In this document: positions 1,867-12,029 of the stretch, one piece after another
Layout of the letters: the number at the start of each line of letters is the position of its first letter
Numbering within the stretch: position 1 is the first letter of the stretch
Assembly: GCA_028276785.1 (NCBI GenBank)
Contig: JAPYVP010000016.1
Coordinates: forward strand, 1-12,052
Reading direction: 5' to 3'
Source of the DNA: Candidatus Nanopusillus sp.
GTDB lineage: Archaea; Nanobdellota; Nanobdellia; Nanobdellales; Nanobdellaceae
Length of the DNA: 12,052 nucleotides
Notes under the pieces: model-generated
What the model was told of the DNA's origin: nothing
The model's database searches: none
What the model saw: only the letters and a program-made list of their open reading frames with translations
Program-made: the position numbers and the translations under genes

Positions 1867-3237
1867 CTAAGATGAAGGATTTACAACTTGGCCAATAAAT
1901 AATATTTCTTTCGTTCTTAAATCTATTATCATAAATATAAAGGGTCTATTTATTTTTATTACTGGTCCTAAAGATACAGTCCGAGCTACTGTAACAGTTG
2001 CTGCAGCAGCTTTAGTTCCTTCTTCATTATTTTCAATATATGTAAACTGCTTAAATAATGAAACATATAAATTCTCATCAGGGCTTTTAGAATATACTAT
2101 ATTTGAAAGATTTGAAGATCCCGGATTAAATATTGTATTTATACCCAAAGATTTAAGATATGGTATCAAATCGTATTTTCCTTCAAAACTAAACTTTGGC
2201 ATATATAATTTATCTACTACAATTTCGTTTAAATTATTTAGATAATAATATAAATTATCCAATGTAAGATTTGATATTATGTTTGACAGGTCACATAGAT
2301 TTTCTCCCGAATTATCTAATGTAAGATTCGATATTATATCTGATAAGTTATATAGATTTTCACCTTTTAATCTGATACATGGATTGTCTACAAGATGATA
2401 TAGATCATAATAAGGATTATATGGAATAATTACAACCATAGCAGTATTATTTCCTTTATAAGGTATTTCTACAACTTCTATATCACCAAAAATTCCATAT
2501 CTCAATGGAACATCATATGCAACCATTGTTTGTACTTCTATAACATCTTTTGGTGAAATATAAAATTTTTCAGGTCTAGTATCTTCTTTTTTAAATTGCT
2601 TTGCCCATTTTCCATAAAAATATATAGCATTTGTTATAATTAATACTGTATTTTCATTGATATCGGATGGTGATATTACATTTTTTATTAAACCATTTGT
2701 ATTTTGTAATATAAAGTTATTTATAGTTTCTGCAGATTTTACCCTATTATTTACATCTATATTTTCAGTTTCTACTAAGAAATAATCTTTTGCAGTATTT
2801 ATAAATGTGGGTTTGAATTCATAATTTTTATTTAAGAATAAACCATTTGCAATTTTTAATTCATAATTACCACCAGTATTCATTAAAATATTATATAATT
2901 CTCCAAAGTTTGGATTATCATAATTTGGCTCACTTAAATTTAATATATTTTTTAATTCTTCATATGTTTCCCCACCAGCTCCATTATATAATAATAAAAG
3001 ATTAGAAAAAACACCGTAAGGAGAAATCATAATATTACTGTTTGGATTATCTTGTTGAATTAATTTAAATAATTTAAGTCCAAGATTATTACTAGAATTT
3101 ACTACATGACTTAATCCTTCAGGAGTCCATCCTGTATTCTTAGCAATCTTAGTAGATGTATTAAAGAATTCATAGAATAAAAATATTAATACAATTCCCA
3201 ATAATGCAACTAAAGCAATTTTAGTATATAATCTCAT
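1867..3237 (-). CDS. Serpin (serine protease inhibitor family), N-terminally membrane-anchored or secreted, inhibitory-type hinge
   Basis: 456 aa with an N-terminal hydrophobic segment, MRLYTKIALVALLGIVLIFLFYEFF. The C-terminal IKINRPFIFMI (1927..1959) fits the serpin signature pattern as I recall it ([LIVMFY]-x-[LIVMFYAC]-[DNQ]-[RKHQS]-[PST]-F-[LIVMFY]-[LIVMFYC]-x-[LIVMFAH]). The hinge EEGTKAAAAT (P17-P8, within 1972..2025) is close to the inhibitory consensus EEGTEAAAAT. The ending ...FIGQVVNPSS is also typical of serpins. Confidence 0.9.
   Translation of the reverse strand: MRLYTKIALVALLGIVLIFLFYEFFNTSTKIAKNTGWTPEGLSHVVNSSNNLGLKLFKLIQQDNPNSNIMISPYGVFSNLLLLYNGAGGETYEELKNILNLSEPNYDNPNFGELYNILMNTGGNYELKIANGLFLNKNYEFKPTFINTAKDYFLVETENIDVNNRVKSAETINNFILQNTNGLIKNVISPSDINENTVLIITNAIYFYGKWAKQFKKEDTRPEKFYISPKDVIEVQTMVAYDVPLRYGIFGDIEVVEIPYKGNNTAMVVIIPYNPYYDLYHLVDNPCIRLKGENLYNLSDIISNLTLDNSGENLCDLSNIISNLTLDNLYYYLNNLNEIVVDKLYMPKFSFEGKYDLIPYLKSLGINTIFNPGSSNLSNIVYSKSPDENLYVSLFKQFTYIENNEEGTKAAAATVTVARTVSLGPVIKINRPFIFMIIDLRTKEILFIGQVVNPSS
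2254..2367 (-). repeat. In-frame tandem duplication (2 x 57 bp) inside the serpin gene
   Basis: Units 2254..2310 and 2311..2367 match at 45 of 57 positions (aligned base by base). They encode GENLYNLSDIISNLTLDNS followed by GENLCDLSNIISNLTLDNL. Confidence 0.9.
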
Positions 3238-4024: not shown

Positions 4025-4792
4025 ATGGGCGCTATGACTATTTCTTCTACCAATTATCCTAAGAAACCAATTTATATAACCTTAGATGAAAGATTGTCAA
4101 GAGAAGATAAAAATATAATCATAAATAATCTAGAAAGATTATTAATTTGGTATGAGAGATTAGCAGGGGTTAAAATACAAAGATATTATTTTGATGGACC
4201 ATGGTGTAGAGATCCAAATCAACCCTATTGTCGTCCTATTTATTATATTGAAATGTGCAGAGATTCTAATGATAAGATAAATGCTAATTGTATTCTTGAT
4301 CTTATTAGAACAGAACCATGGCAACAGCACAGGCCACATATTGATGTATTTGTAATAGACGACATAATTTATACAAGGGGTACTAACTTTTTATTTGGGT
4401 TGAGCTTTCCAGCAATTTTTCCAGATGGTAAGATATTTCGAGATGCTACAGGTGTTGTTCTATCTGTAGGGATATTAAAATTATTTTACGGACGCGATTG
4501 GCCAACAGCATTTTATGGTATAGCTGCACATGAGCTAGGACACTTATTTGGATTACCAGATCCAAAAAGTCCCTATTATATTAGTTATAATCATCCTCGG
4601 ACAAAAGAAAGTCCTTTGTATGCTAACCATTGTTCATATAAGTATTGTGTAATGAGACAAGTAAATGCTGGGGGAAGTCTCGATATAGATTTATTAGATC
4701 TTACAAGAGATATATTGAAATATAATCCAAATTTATATTGTGATTATGACTTTCGACTGTTAAGAAGAAATTTACAGATTCTTTTTGGTTAA
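4025..4792 (+). CDS. Archaemetzincin-like zinc metallopeptidase (peptidase M54 family), divergent
   Basis: 255 aa with no signal peptide. AAHELGHLFGL (H169-E-x-x-H173-x-x-G176) and, further on, HCSYKYCVM (C203-x4-C208-x-M210) match the archaemetzincin motif HExxHxxG...CxxxxCxM. The upstream segment DVFVIDDIIYTRGTNFLFGLSF resembles the M54 block ...D......nFvFG.a. Deviations from the canonical motif are described in findings. Confidence 0.7.
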   Translation: MGAMTISSTNYPKKPIYITLDERLSREDKNIIINNLERLLIWYERLAGVKIQRYYFDGPWCRDPNQPYCRPIYYIEMCRDSNDKINANCILDLIRTEPWQQHRPHIDVFVIDDIIYTRGTNFLFGLSFPAIFPDGKIFRDATGVVLSVGILKLFYGRDWPTAFYGIAAHELGHLFGLPDPKSPYYISYNHPRTKESPLYANHCSYKYCVMRQVNAGGSLDIDLLDLTRDILKYNPNLYCDYDFRLLRRNLQILFG

Positions 4793-7179: not shown

Positions 7180-7647
7180 CTATGGTGTACGCAATGTCGC
7201 CTGAACAGATATTCCACTATATGTAAATGTAAATACATAATAATAAATTCCAGAACTCCATCTAGTAGTTAAACCTGTAGGATTACATGATAATGTTAAT
7301 GTAGTTTGTTGACCTGGTGTAATTATAGCAGATGAAGCTGAACAAGTATATGTAGTAAGAGTATATGTACTGTTTGTAGCCCAATATTCTTGAGCTACTA
7401 TAGTTAGATTAGCAGTATTAATTGGTACATTTCCACTATTGTATAATATTGCATATATATTACCACCAGAAACATATAATTGTGGCACACTAAAAGATAC
7501 TACTTGAGTAACACCGCTAACTTGTTGTGAAGTAGCTCCTGTTAAAGATGAAAACATTCCAGATAACCATGCATACATTAATCCTGCTATTGCTACTGTC
7601 ATTACAATTAATAGTATTGTTGCAATAATTGGCGATATACCCTTCAT
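7180..7647 (-). CDS. Archaeal type IV pilin-like protein with class III signal peptide
   Basis: 155 aa. The N-terminus MKG/ISPIIATILLIVMTVAIAGLMYAW has a short basic leader, then K-G, then a hydrophobic helix. This is the prepilin-peptidase (PibD/FlaK-type) substrate pattern and resembles the archaeal pilin N-terminal domain (Pfam Pilin_N, formerly DUF1628). The remainder is S/T/G-rich and beta-looking, with two Cys (TCSASS...LSCNP) and the N-x-S/T sequons NLT and NST. Confidence 0.8.
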   Translation of the reverse strand: MKGISPIIATILLIVMTVAIAGLMYAWLSGMFSSLTGATSQQVSGVTQVVSFSVPQLYVSGGNIYAILYNSGNVPINTANLTIVAQEYWATNSTYTLTTYTCSASSAIITPGQQTTLTLSCNPTGLTTRWSSGIYYYVFTFTYSGISVQATLRTP

Positions 7648-7670
7648 AAATAATTTATTAAAATATTGAT

Positions 7671-7680
7671 ATTTATAAAT
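7671..7680. promoter_or_regulatory. Palindromic TATA element between the divergent pilin gene and tRNA-Arg (possible bidirectional promoter core)
   Basis: ATTTATAAAT is a perfect 10-bp palindrome. Its centre is 28.5 nt from the pilin ATG (7647) and 33.5 nt from the mature tRNA 5' end (7709). An A-rich BRE-like stretch (TTAAAAA on the minus strand, 7681..7687) flanks it on the pilin side. Confidence 0.35.
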
Positions 7681-7708
7681 TTTTTAACTTTAATCAAAAT
7701 TTAATAAA

Positions 7709-7783
7709 GGACCCGTAGCTCAGCATGGATAGAGCGACGGCCTCCTAAGCCGTAGGTCGGGGGTTCGAATCCCCCCGGGTCCG
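7709..7783 (+). tRNA. tRNA-Arg (anticodon CCT), no intron, CCA not encoded
   Basis: I folded it by hand into a cloverleaf. The acceptor GGACCCG pairs with CGGGTCC. The D arm is GCTC/GAGC with a 10-nt loop. The anticodon stem is ACGGC/GCCGT with loop CT-CCT-AA. The variable loop is AGGTC. The T arm is GGGGG-TTCGAAT-CCCCC and the discriminator is G. It is 75 nt with 50 G+C (67%). Confidence 0.93.
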
Positions 7784-7796
7784 CTTAATTATTAAA

Positions 7797-8996
7797 TTAA
7801 ACATCGATTTCACGTTTATAATATCTTAATCCCAATAAAAATAATGAAGAGACTATATATACATAAACCATTGGCATAAAATCTATTACGTAGAATGTAA
7901 ATAATGTATCGTTACCTAACATATATATTAAGAAAAATCCTAAATAAATTGACAATGGATATAAATAAGAAACTGTAACTTTCTTATCTTTTAATATAAA
8001 CACTAAAGGTGTTAAAATTAACCAGAGTATCATAAAATAATTGTTTACAGATGCATAAAAATTATTTAAATAAAGGTCATTTCCAGAATATGCTCCCAAA
8101 TAAAATGGATGAATGTTTAACAACCATTGCCATGGCAGAGAAATTTGATTTGTAGCATTTACAACATGTCCAGACGTTATACCCCACTCTAATGCGTCTA
8201 AAAAGCCCTTATTAAACCAATTAGAAAATCCAAAATATATAATTAATGGAATGTTTAAAGATAAATATATTAGCAATGGTAGTATAATTACATAGAAAAA
8301 TCTCTTTATTATACTCATATCAACTTTCCTGACATAATATAGAAAAGGGAATATTAAAAATGCTCCTGAAAATTTTGAAGAAAATGCCAGTCCAAAAGAT
8401 ATTGATGATTTTTGTATGTCATCTTTTATTAAATAATATAATGATAATAAAGAAAAAAATGAAACATATATATCTAACATGGCTATACCATGCATTATCC
8501 ACATATTTGGATCAGATATAATTAAAACTGAAGCGATTATTCCAGCAACATTTCCAAATATATTATTACCAACAATTTTTCTAGTTATTAAAAATGATAG
8601 GATTATTATTAAATCCCCCAATATCCAACTAGGAATTCTCCAAACCCAATAATCATATCCTAAAAAATATATAAAGATACCAATAATATATTTTGCTAAA
8701 GGTGGATGTTCAAGATTAAAATAGTCAACCAATTCTTTTCCAGAAGGAAATGGAACAGTCTGATTTATATTTAAATGAAATATTTTTGTCATAATATTAT
8801 ATGAGGCTGGAGCATACCATACTTCATCAGAAATATATGAATTTATATGATAAAATACAGAAACTGTCTGATAAGTATAAATTAACAATAAAATACCCAA
8901 AATTATATAAAAAGGATATTTTTTTATAAATCCATATAATTTATGTACTATTCTGTTTCTCTTTAAATTATCAATAATCTTAAATAAATTTCTCAT
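7797..8996 (-). CDS. GT-C fold membrane glycosyltransferase, PMT/GT39-like (dolichyl-phosphate-sugar:protein or related polyprenyl-phosphate-dependent transferase)
   Basis: 399 aa and polytopic (roughly 10 hydrophobic segments). The first extracytoplasmic loop carries SDEVWYAPASY, comparable to the PMT catalytic DE motif (DEVHFGKFASYY). EHPPLAKYIIGIF follows, comparable to PMT VHPPLGKMLIA. Assignment to GT39 rather than the ArnT-like PMT_2/GT83 family cannot be settled by eye. Confidence 0.75.
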   Translation of the reverse strand: MRNLFKIIDNLKRNRIVHKLYGFIKKYPFYIILGILLLIYTYQTVSVFYHINSYISDEVWYAPASYNIMTKIFHLNINQTVPFPSGKELVDYFNLEHPPLAKYIIGIFIYFLGYDYWVWRIPSWILGDLIIILSFLITRKIVGNNIFGNVAGIIASVLIISDPNMWIMHGIAMLDIYVSFFSLLSLYYLIKDDIQKSSISFGLAFSSKFSGAFLIFPFLYYVRKVDMSIIKRFFYVIILPLLIYLSLNIPLIIYFGFSNWFNKGFLDALEWGITSGHVVNATNQISLPWQWLLNIHPFYLGAYSGNDLYLNNFYASVNNYFMILWLILTPLVFILKDKKVTVSYLYPLSIYLGFFLIYMLGNDTLFTFYVIDFMPMVYVYIVSSLFLLGLRYYKREIDV

Positions 8997-9034
8997 TAAT
9001 GATCTATCTTAAAAAAATTTAAAAAATAGACTAT

Positions 9035-10228
9035 TTAAGATAATCTTTCTATATAGATTTCTGGCATAATTCCGTCTGGTGGATATGTTCTCCCAACAAT
9101 CCAGTATATGGATTGAGAAGATGTTGATTGAGAACCACTTCCAGAACCAATGGAAAAATATCTTCCAGACAAAATGTTTCTATCAACTCTTATTTTTAAA
9201 GTCTGATTAGTATTTTCCAAAGTTCCCAATAGAGAAATTGGCGGAATATCATTCAATACAAGATATCCTGCTTGTACATATGTATCATTACAGAAATTGG
9301 CTAAGAAATATGAATAAACATATGATTGGTTTTTATCTATAAATGATCCTTCATATAATTGTACAGGAAATATTCTACCATAATATGAAATATATATTGC
9401 CGGCTGTAAATTATAATACTCATACTGTACAAATATAGAACCATATAGGGTTGGTGTATATCCTCCAAATTTATTTGCTCCCGCTGCATATACAACGGAT
9501 TTTTCACCATACATTGAAATTACATTTGCATCAGCTTCCCCACTATAATACCATCCTTCTTCAATAATTATTGGTATATTTGGAATATTTCCATTATTTG
9601 GTGGTTCTATATATGATCCTTGAGATAATGAATAATTTATCATCTCAATTCCATTAATTGTTGGGGTTGGAAAATAATTTCCATTTTTAACATTTAAAAC
9701 CCAATTATGTCTTGTATCATAAAACCAACCATAAAAATTAAAGACTAGTTGTCCATTATCATAAATACTCAGAGGTCCCCAACTGTAATTATTATATACA
9801 TAAGATGATATACCAACGTATGGAGAATATTTTTCATAGTAATTTTCTCCCACAGGTCCTATATACATGTATATTGTAATATTTGAATGTGAAGAGATTG
9901 GGGTTGGTAACTTTACCCACCAAATAGAATAATTGTTATAATAACCTGCAAACCAGGAATATAAAATTGACCCTGTAATGTTATTCAAATCTGTAAAGAA
10001 GAAAACGTTTGATCCATTTTCATTTATCCCATATTCATTCATTATAGAGCTATTTATATATATTTCTTGTTGAAATGGTGAAAAAACTGTACAATTTGTT
10101 GGATTATATACTAATAGCTTTAATATTTTTCCGCTGCTATGTGTTTTATTTTGATTACCCAAATAGTATATTATTCCAAAAATAAGAACAATAAAAATTA
10201 ACAATATAAATAAATTTCTTTTATTCAT
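9035..10228 (-). CDS. Secreted or N-terminally anchored glycoprotein with a DUF2341-like (concanavalin/LamG-like) domain
   Basis: 397 aa with the signal/anchor MNKRNLFILLIFIVLIFGIIYYLG and a Y/N/G-rich, beta-looking body. The segment ...GSNVFFFTDLNNITGSILYSWFAGYYNNYSIWWVKLPTPISSHSNITIYMYIGP resembles the DUF2341 core as I recall it (..DiRF.d..g..L.yeiE.....a.vWVKvP.l.a....iYmYYGn). I count 12 N-x-S/T sequons: NKT, NCT, NSS, NGS, NIT, NYS, NIT, NYS, NYS, NQS, NDT, NQT. The CDS call is strong and the family call is moderate. Confidence 0.6.
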   Translation of the reverse strand: MNKRNLFILLIFIVLIFGIIYYLGNQNKTHSSGKILKLLVYNPTNCTVFSPFQQEIYINSSIMNEYGINENGSNVFFFTDLNNITGSILYSWFAGYYNNYSIWWVKLPTPISSHSNITIYMYIGPVGENYYEKYSPYVGISSYVYNNYSWGPLSIYDNGQLVFNFYGWFYDTRHNWVLNVKNGNYFPTPTINGIEMINYSLSQGSYIEPPNNGNIPNIPIIIEEGWYYSGEADANVISMYGEKSVVYAAGANKFGGYTPTLYGSIFVQYEYYNLQPAIYISYYGRIFPVQLYEGSFIDKNQSYVYSYFLANFCNDTYVQAGYLVLNDIPPISLLGTLENTNQTLKIRVDRNILSGRYFSIGSGSGSQSTSSQSIYWIVGRTYPPDGIMPEIYIERLS

Positions 10229-10269
10229 AAACTAATAATGATAATAATTTTTTTAAATAATTTGTTATT

Positions 10270-11412
10270 TTATATCAATAGTAACAGACCCAAAATTCCT
10301 GCTATAAATATAAGTACATAATTTATATTCTCAGAAACTGATAGGGTAGGTGAAGAAGATCCCAATCCAACATTAAATTGGTAAGTTCCATACCCGACAT
10401 ATTGTCCATCTACATAAACCTTTATATTCACATCTGTTGAACCTGGAGATAATACAAGCATATTAAATGGTATTATTACTGAACTATTTGGTGGTAAAGA
10501 AGAAGATATAGTAATATTATCTAATACTGTTAATGGTAAGTTATTATATGATAAAATTACGCTATTTCCAATAACTGAAAAAGATAAAGTTATATTATTA
10601 ATCGTTGCATTACCAGAATTAGTTATATTTAAATAAAATATTACGTTTCCAGACTGTACAGGGATACTAATTGACCTATAGAATGTTTGATTAATAGAGT
10701 TAATATTTAGAATACCACGCAGATATAGAATAGAACTATATATACGAGTGGTTGTTGTAGTAGTAGTTACATAATTTGTAATAGTAGAAGTAGTTGTAAC
10801 TGTAGATGTTGTATATTGGGTGTTTGTTACTGCTGAATAAACCGTAGATGTCGTAGTACTTGTTACACTTGTAGTATATGTCTGGCCATTTATGATTGTC
10901 GAAGTTGAAGTTACAGTAGAAGTAACTGTTGTTGTTGATACTGCGCTAGTAACTGTTGCTGTACTAGTAACAGTTGTATAAATAGTCGATGTTGATGTAT
11001 AAACTGTAGATGTCGTAGTACTTGTAATTGTTGAAGTAACTGTTGTTGTTGATACTGCGCTAGTAACTGTTGCTGTACTTGTTGCCGTGGTATAAACCGT
11101 ATTAGTAACTGTTGTATATACTGTGTTAGTTACTGTTGTATATTCAGTATATGTGACTGTTGTATATACTGTGTTAGTTACTGTGGATGTAACAGTTCTT
11201 GTAACAGTAACGGTTTTATAGACTGTATTAATTACTGTATATGTACAATATTCTACACATTCAGTTCCTACACTACAATAAGTACATATACCACCTGGAG
11301 CATCATAGGTAGTACAAGGACCACTATAAATAACATTAAATGCCTTTATAAATAATACTAAAATTAACATATATTTTAAAATTCTTTTTATTTTTGTACT
11401 AGTATCTATCAT
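10270..11412 (-). CDS. Thr-rich cell-surface protein B: signal peptide, Cys-rich module, Thr/Val/Ser repeat region, Ig-like (CARDB / COG1361 S-layer-domain-like) domain, C-terminal TM anchor
   Basis: I place the start at ATG 11412..11410 (380 aa), not at the track's 11556. MIDTSTKIKRILKYMLILVLFIKAFNVIYSG is a proper signal peptide, and its ATG overlaps the stop of the upstream gene (ATGA at 11412..11409). Next comes GPCTTYDAPGGICTYCSVGTECVEYCTY with 6 Cys. About 170 residues of T/V/S/Y repeats follow (VTNTVYTT units). A domain then reads ...VIFYLNITNSGNATINNITLSFSV...LPPNSSVIIPFNMLVLSPGSTDVNIKVYVDGQYVG, resembling CARDB/archaeal S-layer-domain Ig folds. The C-terminus is the hydrophobic YVLIFIAGILGLLLLI. 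Confidence 0.75.
   Translation of the reverse strand: MIDTSTKIKRILKYMLILVLFIKAFNVIYSGPCTTYDAPGGICTYCSVGTECVEYCTYTVINTVYKTVTVTRTVTSTVTNTVYTTVTYTEYTTVTNTVYTTVTNTVYTTATSTATVTSAVSTTTVTSTITSTTTSTVYTSTSTIYTTVTSTATVTSAVSTTTVTSTVTSTSTIINGQTYTTSVTSTTTSTVYSAVTNTQYTTSTVTTTSTITNYVTTTTTTTRIYSSILYLRGILNINSINQTFYRSISIPVQSGNVIFYLNITNSGNATINNITLSFSVIGNSVILSYNNLPLTVLDNITISSSLPPNSSVIIPFNMLVLSPGSTDVNIKVYVDGQYVGYGTYQFNVGLGSSSPTLSVSENINYVLIFIAGILGLLLLI
10747..11241 (-). repeat. Coding Thr/Val/Ser repeat array in protein B (24-bp octapeptide units plus a 114-bp higher-order duplication)
   Basis: A perfect 29-bp repeat lies at 11108..11136 and 11156..11184 (offset 48 bp, two 24-bp units). A perfect 47-bp repeat lies at 10919..10965 and 11033..11079 (offset 114 bp, 38 codons) and encodes TSTATVTSAVSTTTVTST twice. 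Both were checked base by base. Confidence 0.9.
11075..11139 (-). repeat. 65-bp perfect direct repeat, copy in gene B (partner at 11728..11792 in gene A)
   Basis: gtacttgttgccgtggtataaaccgtattagtaactgttgtatatactgtgttagttactgttgt is identical at both sites (compared base by base). The offset is 653 bp and both copies are in the same reading frame in their genes (see findings). Confidence 0.92.
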
Positions 11413-12029
11413 GATTGTATTAAAGTGTAATAAGTTTGGCTGGTTGTAACAGTTGAAGTTACAGTAGATGTTGTAGTTGTATAAACAGTTGATGTAGTTG
11501 TAACCGTGCTTGTAGTTGTCATGGTATCGGTGGCCGTTGTGTATACAGTACTCCATATGGTTACTGTAGAAGTTGTCGTTGTTGTAATTGTAGTTGAAAC
11601 GACTACTGTAGAAGTTATTGTGTTTGTAGCGGTTCCTGTAACAGTTGAAGTTACTGTGGTAGTTAAAGCGCTGGTTGTAGTAAATATGCCATATACAGTC
11701 TGTGTTATTGTAGTTGTTGAATATACAGTACTTGTTGCCGTGGTATAAACCGTATTAGTAACTGTTGTATATACTGTGTTAGTTACTGTTGTTGTTCTAG
11801 TTATTGTTGTATATTCAAAGTATGTAATTGTAGTATATTTTGTGTTAGTTACTGTTGTATAAACCGTATTAGTTACTGTGGATGTATATGTAGCAGTAAC
11901 TGTATCAGTTACTGTGGATGTAACAGTATTATAAACAGAAGTAAATGTTGCACATTGTGAATATATAGGCAACATATGAATAAAAATAACTATAAATATC
12001 ATCAAAATCTTATATAATTTATGTAGCAT
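11409..12029 (-). CDS. Thr-rich secreted protein A (paralog of the N-terminal repeat region of protein B, no anchor)
   Basis: 206 aa with the signal peptide MLHKLYKILMIFIVIFIHMLPIYSQ. The mature part is about half threonine (I count about 88 T in about 180 residues). It contains the units VTNTVYTT / VTNTKYTT / ITYFEYTT. The protein ends ...TSQTYYTLIQS with a TGA that overlaps the next gene's ATG. Confidence 0.75.
   Translation of the reverse strand: MLHKLYKILMIFIVIFIHMLPIYSQCATFTSVYNTVTSTVTDTVTATYTSTVTNTVYTTVTNTKYTTITYFEYTTITRTTTVTNTVYTTVTNTVYTTATSTVYSTTTITQTVYGIFTTTSALTTTVTSTVTGTATNTITSTVVVSTTITTTTTSTVTIWSTVYTTATDTMTTTSTVTTTSTVYTTTTSTVTSTVTTSQTYYTLIQS
11728..11792 (-). repeat. 65-bp perfect direct repeat, copy in gene A (partner at 11075..11139 in gene B)
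   Basis: See the partner entry. Weaker similarity with an indel continues on the higher-coordinate (5') side of both genes, to about 11890 in A and 11190 in B. Confidence 0.92.

Follow-up and report, generated by a model that had tools for sequence, protein, structure and literature searches.

A GT-C transferase of the protein-O-mannosyltransferase lineage encoded among threonine-repeat surface proteins in Candidatus Nanopusillus

Layout of the locus

A series of genes for predicted surface proteins and a membrane glycosyltransferase occupies the right-hand part of a 12,052-nt stretch of DNA from Candidatus Nanopusillus sp. (contig JAPYVP010000016.1 of assembly GCA_028276785.1), which was analysed at its full length and is called the window below; its G+C content is ~25%. 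An original prediction made from the sequence alone had proposed five minus-strand genes here and read them as an enzyme-substrate cassette for archaeal protein O-glycosylation, and all five open reading frames were recovered at the positions it had given. In the direction of transcription, they encode the 206-aa Thr-repeat secreted protein A (11409–12029), the 380-aa Thr-repeat, membrane-anchored protein B (10270–11412), ORF3, a 397-aa membrane-anchored protein with a lectin-like fold (9035–10228), a 399-aa transferase of the GT-C class and of a PMT/GT39-like lineage (PMT, protein-O-mannosyltransferase), hereafter GT (7797–8996), and a 155-aa type IV pilin (7180–7647). The packing is exactly as predicted: the stop codon of A and the start codon of B share an ATGA, and A+T-rich spacers of 41 bp (10229–10269) and 38 bp (8997–9034) on the same strand lie between B and ORF3 and between ORF3 and GT, respectively. 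The convergent tRNA gene that had been claimed was identified as tRNA-Arg(CCT) on the plus strand (7709–7784; ARAGORN, Rfam 71 bits); it is convergent with GT and parts GT from the pilin gene.

The mechanical open reading frame of B extends to 11556, and the ATG at 11412 used here is backed by the N-termini of the orthologues. An 80-aa Val-rich open reading frame on the plus strand opposite gene A (11506–11748) was rejected as a mirror artefact of the ACN Thr-codon repeats, the minus-strand frames of A and B being preferred because of orthologue conservation. By eye, and in a genome of 75% A+T, a TATA-like run could be picked out in each spacer, TTTTTTAAAT (coding strand) ~21–30 nt 5′ of the GT ATG in the 38-bp spacer and TTTAAAAA ~22–29 nt 5′ of the ORF3 ATG in the 41-bp spacer. 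A promoter and terminator scan, which applied bacterial models to this archaeal DNA, returned 42 sites against 40.9 expected and was uninformative.

Family and fold of the transferase

GT has ~10–11 transmembrane (TM) helices and a cytoplasmic, K/R-rich N-terminus, the latter suggesting that its first loop lies outside the cell. This loop holds both motifs that had been noted for the proposed GT-C transferase, namely DEVWY, whose acidic pair (D57, E58) directly follows TM1, and HPPLAKY, here within EHPPLAKY; D57, E58, P98, P99 and K102 are unchanged across 32 homologues. Of the two Pfam families that had been suggested for a check, GT exceeded the threshold for PMT_2 (PF13231, 35.5 bits vs a gathering score of 26.1) and stayed just under that for PMT (PF02366, 21.8 bits vs 22.7, matching profile positions 81–196 only). 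PF02366 matches 20 of the 32 family members at E ≤ 0.01, the direct Pfam search for PMT_4TMC (PF16192) came up empty for GT and for each of the 32 homologues, and the NCBIfam Pmt equivalog matches GT weakly.

The AlphaFold2 (AF2) model of GT, built from the alignment of the 32 homologues (pLDDT 92.6), consists of ~11 long helices. Foldseek searches of this model against the PDB returned the fungal Pmt4 of C. thermophilum as the best match (9i5k; E 2e-7, TMq 0.68), followed by ArnT (5ezm; E 3.6e-6, TMq 0.59) and then by yeast Pmt1/2/4, ALG12 and AglB. With the exception of PIG-U, a GT-C-like subunit of the GPI transamidase, each of the 36 best matches (E up to 0.15) is a GT-C enzyme, and these enzymes comprise the families Pmt, ArnT, ALG12/3/9, AglB/PglB/STT3, Emb, AftA/AftB and GPI-MT. 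The GT-C fold that had been claimed is matched in this way, and the helical core together with an acidic pair in the first extracytoplasmic loop places GT in the GT-C superfamily, class GT-C_A.

Since the fold search alone splits PMT from ArnT only narrowly, a profile comparison was carried out. With hhalign, the profile of the 32 homologues was aligned to P0093, a prokaryotic protein of PMT + PMT_4TMC architecture (PF16192 at 57.7 bits), with 99.7% probability (E 6e-26) over 308 columns, which cover GT residues 49–386 including the C-terminal helices, whereas the probability for E. coli ArnT was 0.6%. Among PDB sequences, Pmt4 was the sole glycosyltransferase matched by the GT profile, weakly (E 0.045), and in this alignment EHPPLaK is paired with VHPPLGK and PWDW with PYQW; one further weak match was to an unrelated sialidase (E 0.37), and a single-sequence search of the PDB with GT gave no match.

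GT shares with ArnT and RgtA-D (GT83-type) the GT-C_A class and the PMT_2/PMT Pfam clan, but it is set apart from them by the profile result, by its length of 399 aa and by the lack of a soluble periplasmic domain; on PF02366, E. coli ArnT scores 211 bits vs the 21.8 bits of GT. Nor does GT look like an oligosaccharyltransferase (AglB/STT3), as it has no STT3 Pfam match and AglB and PglB appear at fold rank 11 or below, with TMt ~0.26; in Nanopusillus acidilobi, Nps_01945 is a 21-TM N-glycosylation protein distinct from the GT orthologue. With Pmt4 as the best fold and no clustering with ArnT-like enzymes or oligosaccharyltransferases, which the original prediction had named as the outcome that would count against it, GT belongs, as a polytopic GT-C enzyme, to the protein-O-mannosyltransferase lineage.

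The likeness to PMTs (Pmt1/Pmt2/Pmt4; 6p25, 9i5k and 9e61; actinobacterial Pmt) extends to the GT-C fold, the Asp-Glu pair, HPPL(A/G)K and P(W/Y)xW, and by family GT would be expected to share their donor, a dolichyl or polyprenyl phosphate sugar, and their acceptor, secreted Ser/Thr. GT differs from them in its size of 399 aa, in an identity of 14–18%, in having no MIR domain and in its putative substrates, which are periodic (T-X)n sequences and not disordered Pro/Ser/Thr. In GT no Pfam match to MIR was obtained, and the external loop 274–318 holds no more than a β-hairpin in the AF2 model; to our knowledge, bacterial PMTs likewise have no MIR domains, and no clustering of PMT genes with the genes of their substrates is known. 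Identity of GT is 97–99% to proteins from Candidatus Nanopusillus metagenome-assembled genomes and 86–87% to its counterparts in N. acidilobi 7A and Nanobsidianus stetteri, the N. acidilobi orthologue being Nps_02605, assigned to arCOG00561.

The co-encoded surface proteins and their conservation

Protein A consists of a signal-like hydrophobic N-terminus followed by an unbroken (Thr/Tyr-X)n repeat at residues 40–206, with neither a C-terminal anchor nor an N-X-S/T sequon. Within the repeat, Thr occupies 64 of the 83 odd positions (10 more hold Tyr) vs 19 of the 84 even ones, which hold V, S, I, N and A; the Fourier peak lies at a period of 2.01 and the phase is constant over 167 residues. An example of a (T-X)n peptide is TVTSTVTNTVYTTVT. 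The alternate Thr residues are fully kept in four orthologues, as are IWST(V/I)YTT and the C-terminal QTYYTL(I/L)QS (QTYYTLIQS in the window). The N. acidilobi orthologue, Nps_02620, is annotated as uncharacterised, and a homology search with A returned no homologue, low-complexity Thr-rich sequences having filled the limit of 8000 candidates.

Protein B begins with a signal-like N-terminus and a short Cys-rich segment, continues with a (Thr-X)n region (residues 50–236) that has the same period of 2 and a few phase shifts, and ends in a β-rich domain and a C-terminal TM anchor. Its conserved C-terminal domain (51–82% identity among orthologues) carries six sequons and shows weak similarity to CARDB, at 16.4 bits and under threshold. 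The statement that both proteins are about 50% Thr is right for the Thr-rich segments (48% over residues 22–206 of A, 44% over residues 50–236 of B) and too high for the whole proteins (42.7% and 25.3%); A contains 0.5% Pro and B 2.4%. Pro and Gly are nearly absent from the Thr regions, in which V, Y and I stand at alternate positions, a pattern from which an extended β structure with one all-Thr face would be expected.

No sequon occurs in the Thr regions of the window, compared with 3.4 expected for A and 4.4 for B by shuffling, and six orthologue Thr regions (L002, L006 and L007) hold 0, 0, 0, 0, 1 and 3, counts which are not independent of one another because of the repeats and shared ancestry. 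The depletion comes about because Asn of the Thr regions always stands in a T-N-T-(V/A/Q/I) context. Given this lack of sequons, any glycan on the Thr regions would be O-linked.

Tandem repeats of 24 and 57 nt are present inside the A and B genes (10913–11184 and 11715–11879), the repeats of A at 11715–11879 having the 24-nt unit. Together with the length range among strains, 206–253 aa for A and 376–397 aa for B, they suggest repeat-mediated size variation of both proteins.

ORF3 has an N-terminal-helix membrane anchor, an extracellular β-sandwich and 12 N-X-S/T sequons. It had been described as DUF2341-like, and this was upheld only indirectly: the window protein gave no Pfam match above threshold and DUF2341 (PF10102) was not detected in it, while at a gathering score of 23.4 a paralogue passes (P0171, 29.5 bits) and the orthologue P0112 from the lineage with a 63%-identical GT reaches 16.5 bits. 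The AF2 model (pLDDT 80.5) is a β-sandwich of the concanavalin A (ConA)/L-type-lectin kind, consistent with the same assignment, and in Foldseek searches the mannose-binding VIP36, ERGIC-53 and Emp46p and legume lectins came top (E ~1e-7). Across the fold matches, the M. jannaschii lectin domain included, E ranges from 1e-7 to 3e-5 and TMt from 0.5 to 0.65, and the modelled resemblance to lectins concerns the fold only. All named matches of the ORF3 family belong to Nanoarchaeota (Nanopusillus, Nanobsidianus and Nanobdella), most matches being unnamed metagenome proteins, and its paralogues of 400–690 aa are annotated with archaeal pilin/archaellin N-termini.

The claim of a type IV pilin-like gene was supported by a class III signal peptide and by TIGR02537, which scored 36.8 bits (cutoff 20); the N-terminus also matches archaeal filament subunits in the PDB. 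Ser and Thr make up 30.8% of the globular part, which has three charged residues (~2.5%). In composition the pilin resembles the O-glycosylated pili of Saccharolobus/Sulfolobus, from which it differs in falling under the cutoff of the UpsA equivalog NF046073 (106.5 bits vs 130). Adhesive pili of Sulfolobales are heavily O-glycosylated, and their pilins contain ~37% S/T and ~1.5% charged residues (PMC7347861).

The arrangement was compared in N. acidilobi (L007), N. stetteri (L006), RSNS12 (L005) and a lineage whose GT is 63% identical (L002–L004 and L008). In the first three loci, a gene for a 401-aa secreted protein is followed by A, B, ORF3, GT, tRNA-Arg, pilin and SufS; in the 63% lineage, a 411-aa gene precedes A, B, ORF3 and GT, and other genes lie downstream, with no tRNA and no pilin. 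An all-against-all comparison of L007 and L002 revealed that the 401/411-aa gene, A, B, ORF3 and GT are the only genes common to both within ±8 kb, indicating that the block was kept while its flanks were rearranged. The A/B ATGA overlap and the 38–41 bp spacers are retained as well. The arrangement is thus more than chance, being kept in four Nanopusillus genomes that include the 63% lineage.

The 401–411-aa protein just mentioned, secreted or membrane-bound, is encoded by a sixth co-directional gene of the block past the right end of the window (Nps_02625; L007 3560–4765, L002 3518–4753); it is 60% identical between the lineages and belongs to no Pfam family.

Two further DPANN lineages (L025; L087/L088) encode a GT of 36–37% identity amid secreted and pilin-like proteins. 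In L025 (4629–6482 and 10878–12971), L087 (764–1573 and 2949–5150) and L088, GT is flanked by sequon-rich membrane-anchored proteins, and neighbours of 570–730 aa in these loci have class III signal peptides and Thr/Ser-rich tails (TTTHTTKVY repeats, poly-Ser). The upstream gene of L087 overlaps the start of GT.

The closest relatives of GT outside DPANN are the Sulfolobales orthologues of the Agl1/Saci_0421 group, with 44–51% identity over ~90% of the length, which are found in the order DeoC-agl1(GT)-agl2 (NTP_transferase)-(agl3, epimerase)-agl4 (BadF kinase). In several Sulfolobales, GT stands beside agl2 and agl4 with no agl3 homologue in the fetched flanks. None of the Nanopusillus loci contains a homologue of Agl2, Agl3, Agl4 or DeoC within ±8 kb. 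In a neighbour-joining tree, Nanopusillus is sister to Thermoproteus plus Sulfolobales, with the other DPANN just outside; transfer of GT from a Sulfolobales host was rejected as a firm claim, Nanopusillus not being nested within Thermoproteus plus Sulfolobales in this tree. The predicted pairing of GT with Thr-rich genes therefore holds across Nanopusillus and is absent from the closest non-DPANN relatives.

Elsewhere in the window, a full-length serpin gene (1867–3237, minus strand; Pfam Serpin 317 bits) contains an internal 57-nt tandem duplication at 2253–2361 that encodes GENLYNLSDIISNLTLDN twice. An overlapping VapBC-type toxin-antitoxin-like pair lies on the plus strand at 1108–1332 and 1319–1714, the first gene encoding 74 aa with weak antitoxin-like matches and the second a PIN domain (61 bits). 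A 255-aa protein encoded at 4025–4792 (plus strand) has a HELGHLFGL zinc-metalloprotease motif followed by Cys pairs and gives weak Reprolysin/Matrixin matches. In N. acidilobi, the fetched 17-kb stretch of L007 yielded no homologue of the serpin or of the HELGHLFGL protein.

Candidate acceptors and competing explanations

Tentatively, we regard GT as a plausible candidate for an enzyme that O-glycosylates Thr/Ser of the co-encoded secreted proteins. By analogy with its family, GT would take a hexose from dolichyl phosphate, likely Dol-P-mannose or Dol-P-glucose (Dol-P, dolichyl phosphate) supplied by cytoplasmic GT2 enzymes, and pass it on at the membrane's outer face, where the Asp-Glu pair of loop 1 would be catalytic. 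From the conserved neighbourhood we infer that the likeliest acceptors are Thr/Ser hydroxyls of proteins emerging from the membrane, those of A and B above all, and the low-charge, S/T-rich pilin is probably an acceptor as well. In the product, O-linked sugars would line one face of the protein; B would be held by its C-terminal anchor, A would be released or associated with B, and the glycans so formed may be ligands of the lectin-like ORF3. Donors may be supplied by a phosphomannomutase, NDP-sugar pyrophosphorylases and a 2-TM glycosyltransferase, which N. acidilobi encodes and expresses. For Sulfolobus acidocaldarius, a structural study of 2024 reports an O-linked single mannose and calls the O-glycosyltransferase "currently elusive" (PMC11607397); in the literature searched no assigned archaeal O-glycosyltransferase was found, in agreement with the original prediction on this point. 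Of the proposed enzyme-substrate cassette, the PMT lineage of GT, the synteny in Nanopusillus and the S/T-rich neighbours in two further DPANN lineages speak in its favour.

A number of observations weigh against this reading. The PMT score of GT lies under the gathering score and PMT_4TMC has no direct match, as given above. In the fetched Sulfolobales loci (~8 kb), the GT orthologue has no Thr-rich, ORF3-like or pilin neighbours, and around the Thermoproteus orthologues any glycosylation context is missing. A and B depart from the mucin-like type, which is Pro-rich, disordered and aperiodic in S/T; their Pro-poor, V/Y/I-rich and strictly periodic Thr regions are probably folded, unlike classical disordered PMT substrates. 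N-sequons are plentiful in ORF3, in the C-terminal domain of B and in the upstream neighbours of the other DPANN, the gene directly upstream of GT in L087/L088 and L025 being very rich in them. ConA, which is specific for α-Man/α-Glc, left N. acidilobi cells unlabelled (PMC4935971). Because each short spacer has its own TATA-like run, separate leaderless transcripts are possible, and the operon is presumed only. The six proteins of the block went undetected in the published N. acidilobi proteome; this was given no weight, since that proteome covers only ~200 proteins and tryptic sites are all but missing from A and B. Finally, the annotation of GT is already known, published genomes listing a predicted Dol-P-Man-protein mannosyltransferase (arCOG00561).

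The main competing explanation, which we hold to be somewhat unlikely, is that GT finishes N-glycans at the outer face as an AglS-, ALG3/9/12- or "Agl1"-like enzyme, acting on a flipped lipid-linked oligosaccharide or on an Asn-bound glycan, and that its neighbours are N-glycosylated surface proteins. AglS of Haloferax volcanii is probably PMT-like as well. According to PMC3871713, this archaeal membrane enzyme adds mannose from Dol-P-mannose to an Asn-linked tetrasaccharide at the outer face; its acceptor is an N-glycan and not Ser/Thr, a precedent which leaves the acceptor of GT unfixed by PMT-likeness and thereby weakens the case for O-glycosylation. The sequons of ORF3 and B and the sequon-rich genes upstream of GT in L087/L088 and L025 fit this explanation, as do the ALG12, ALG3 and ALG9 enzymes among the fold matches and the AglB-like, AglH-like and flippase genes of N. 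acidilobi. Set against it are the ranking of the ALG enzymes and AglB below Pmt4, ArnT and Pmt1/2, the PMT + PMT_4TMC protein as the full-length profile match, and the fact that sequon-free A is the most tightly linked conserved partner of GT.

The same explanation draws on Agl1, which belongs with GT to arCOG00561 and stands in a sister clade. GT-C enzymes use lipid-phosphate donors, and a UDP-sulfoquinovose donor is atypical of them. The agl1 gene (saci0421) lies in the agl1–agl4 cluster with genes for an NDP-glucose pyrophosphorylase, a UDP-sulfoquinovose synthase and a kinase, and in PMC4388408 Agl1 is predicted to add sulfoquinovose to the N-glycan, a further point in disfavour of O-glycosylation. 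The role has stayed a prediction, made with a donor that is atypical for GT-C. N. acidilobi has neither a sulfoquinovose synthase nor an epimerase among its annotated genes, and on this ground a sulfoquinovosyltransferase role was rejected for the Nanopusillus GT. The genomic contexts differ as well, sugar activation surrounding agl1 and Thr-repeat, lectin-like and pilin genes surrounding GT. The UDP-sulfoquinovose proposal fits poorly with the GT-C/PMT-like nature of Agl1 (S. acidocaldarius SUSAZ, L001 8001–9140), from which a dolichyl-phosphate donor would be expected.

That GT glycosylates head groups of tetraether lipids in the manner of ArnT/RgtA-D, with lipids derived from the host and an incidental adjacency to the surface genes, appears very unlikely. 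It would agree with PMT_2 being the better Pfam match, with a homologue named "RgtA/B/C/D-like" in UniRef, with the second place of ArnT in the fold ranking and with the suggestion of Wurch et al. that the glycosylation of proteins and of lipids alike draws on activated sugars. Deletion of saci_0421 reduces the cyclopentane-ring count of glycerol dialkyl glycerol tetraethers (PMC7312580; PMC7174258), the only phenotype found in the literature searched, but Saci_1201, which the literature places in glycogen metabolism, shares this phenotype, so that the effect is probably indirect. The hhalign probability of 0.6% for ArnT, the failure of the GT profile to match any ArnT sequence in the PDB, the missing periplasmic C-terminal domain and the preservation of the five-gene block across rearranged flanks all argue against a lipid acceptor. 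Distinctly unlikely, too, is the absence of any functional cassette, in which case GT would be a housekeeping enzyme whose position reflects gene packing in a 0.6-Mb genome rich in surface genes. The extreme compactness of this genome, the very common single-TM "uncharacterised" proteins of N. acidilobi, the TATA-like element in each spacer, the far wider spread of the GT family than of A, B and ORF3, and the missing pilin and tRNA downstream in the 63% lineage are in line with this explanation. It is countered by the persistence of the block with unrelated flanks on both sides, by the retained ATGA overlap and 38–41 bp spacers, and by independent DPANN lineages in which GT is again set amid secreted S/T-rich or pilin-like proteins. 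The cassette with O-glycosylated neighbours, tentative as it is, is accordingly qualified by the Sulfolobales context, the AglS precedent, the non-mucin repeats and the ConA result.

A more far-reaching proposal, which we consider rather unlikely as a whole, is that the arCOG00561/Agl1 family is the archaeal protein O-glycosyltransferase: in Sulfolobales it would be responsible for O-mannose on Ser/Thr-rich stretches and possibly for the heavily O-glycosylated state of the pili, and in Nanopusillus, from a dedicated block, it would place a sugar on every second residue of A and B, giving a lectin-recognised β fibre or sheet for host contact with one glycan-coated face.

In archaea, O-glycosylation is on record for S-layer proteins, for cytochrome b558/566 and for the pili of Sulfolobales, and as a putative modification for the thread filament. 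What is new here is a lineage-specific, previously undescribed arrangement of an enzyme of known lineage with unusual (Thr-X)n proteins, and this arrangement makes Saci_0421/arCOG00561 a candidate for the archaeal O-glycosyltransferase that is still missing. As Saci_0421 belongs to a genetically tractable organism for which a deletion strain has been described, the hypothesis is directly testable; if N-glycans were the true acceptors, the role of "Agl1", a prediction since 2011, would be settled instead. For Nanopusillus itself, an obligate ectosymbiont of Thermoproteota with ~600 genes, the specific surface set of (Thr-X)n repeat proteins, lectin-fold protein and pilin provides good candidates for contact with the host.

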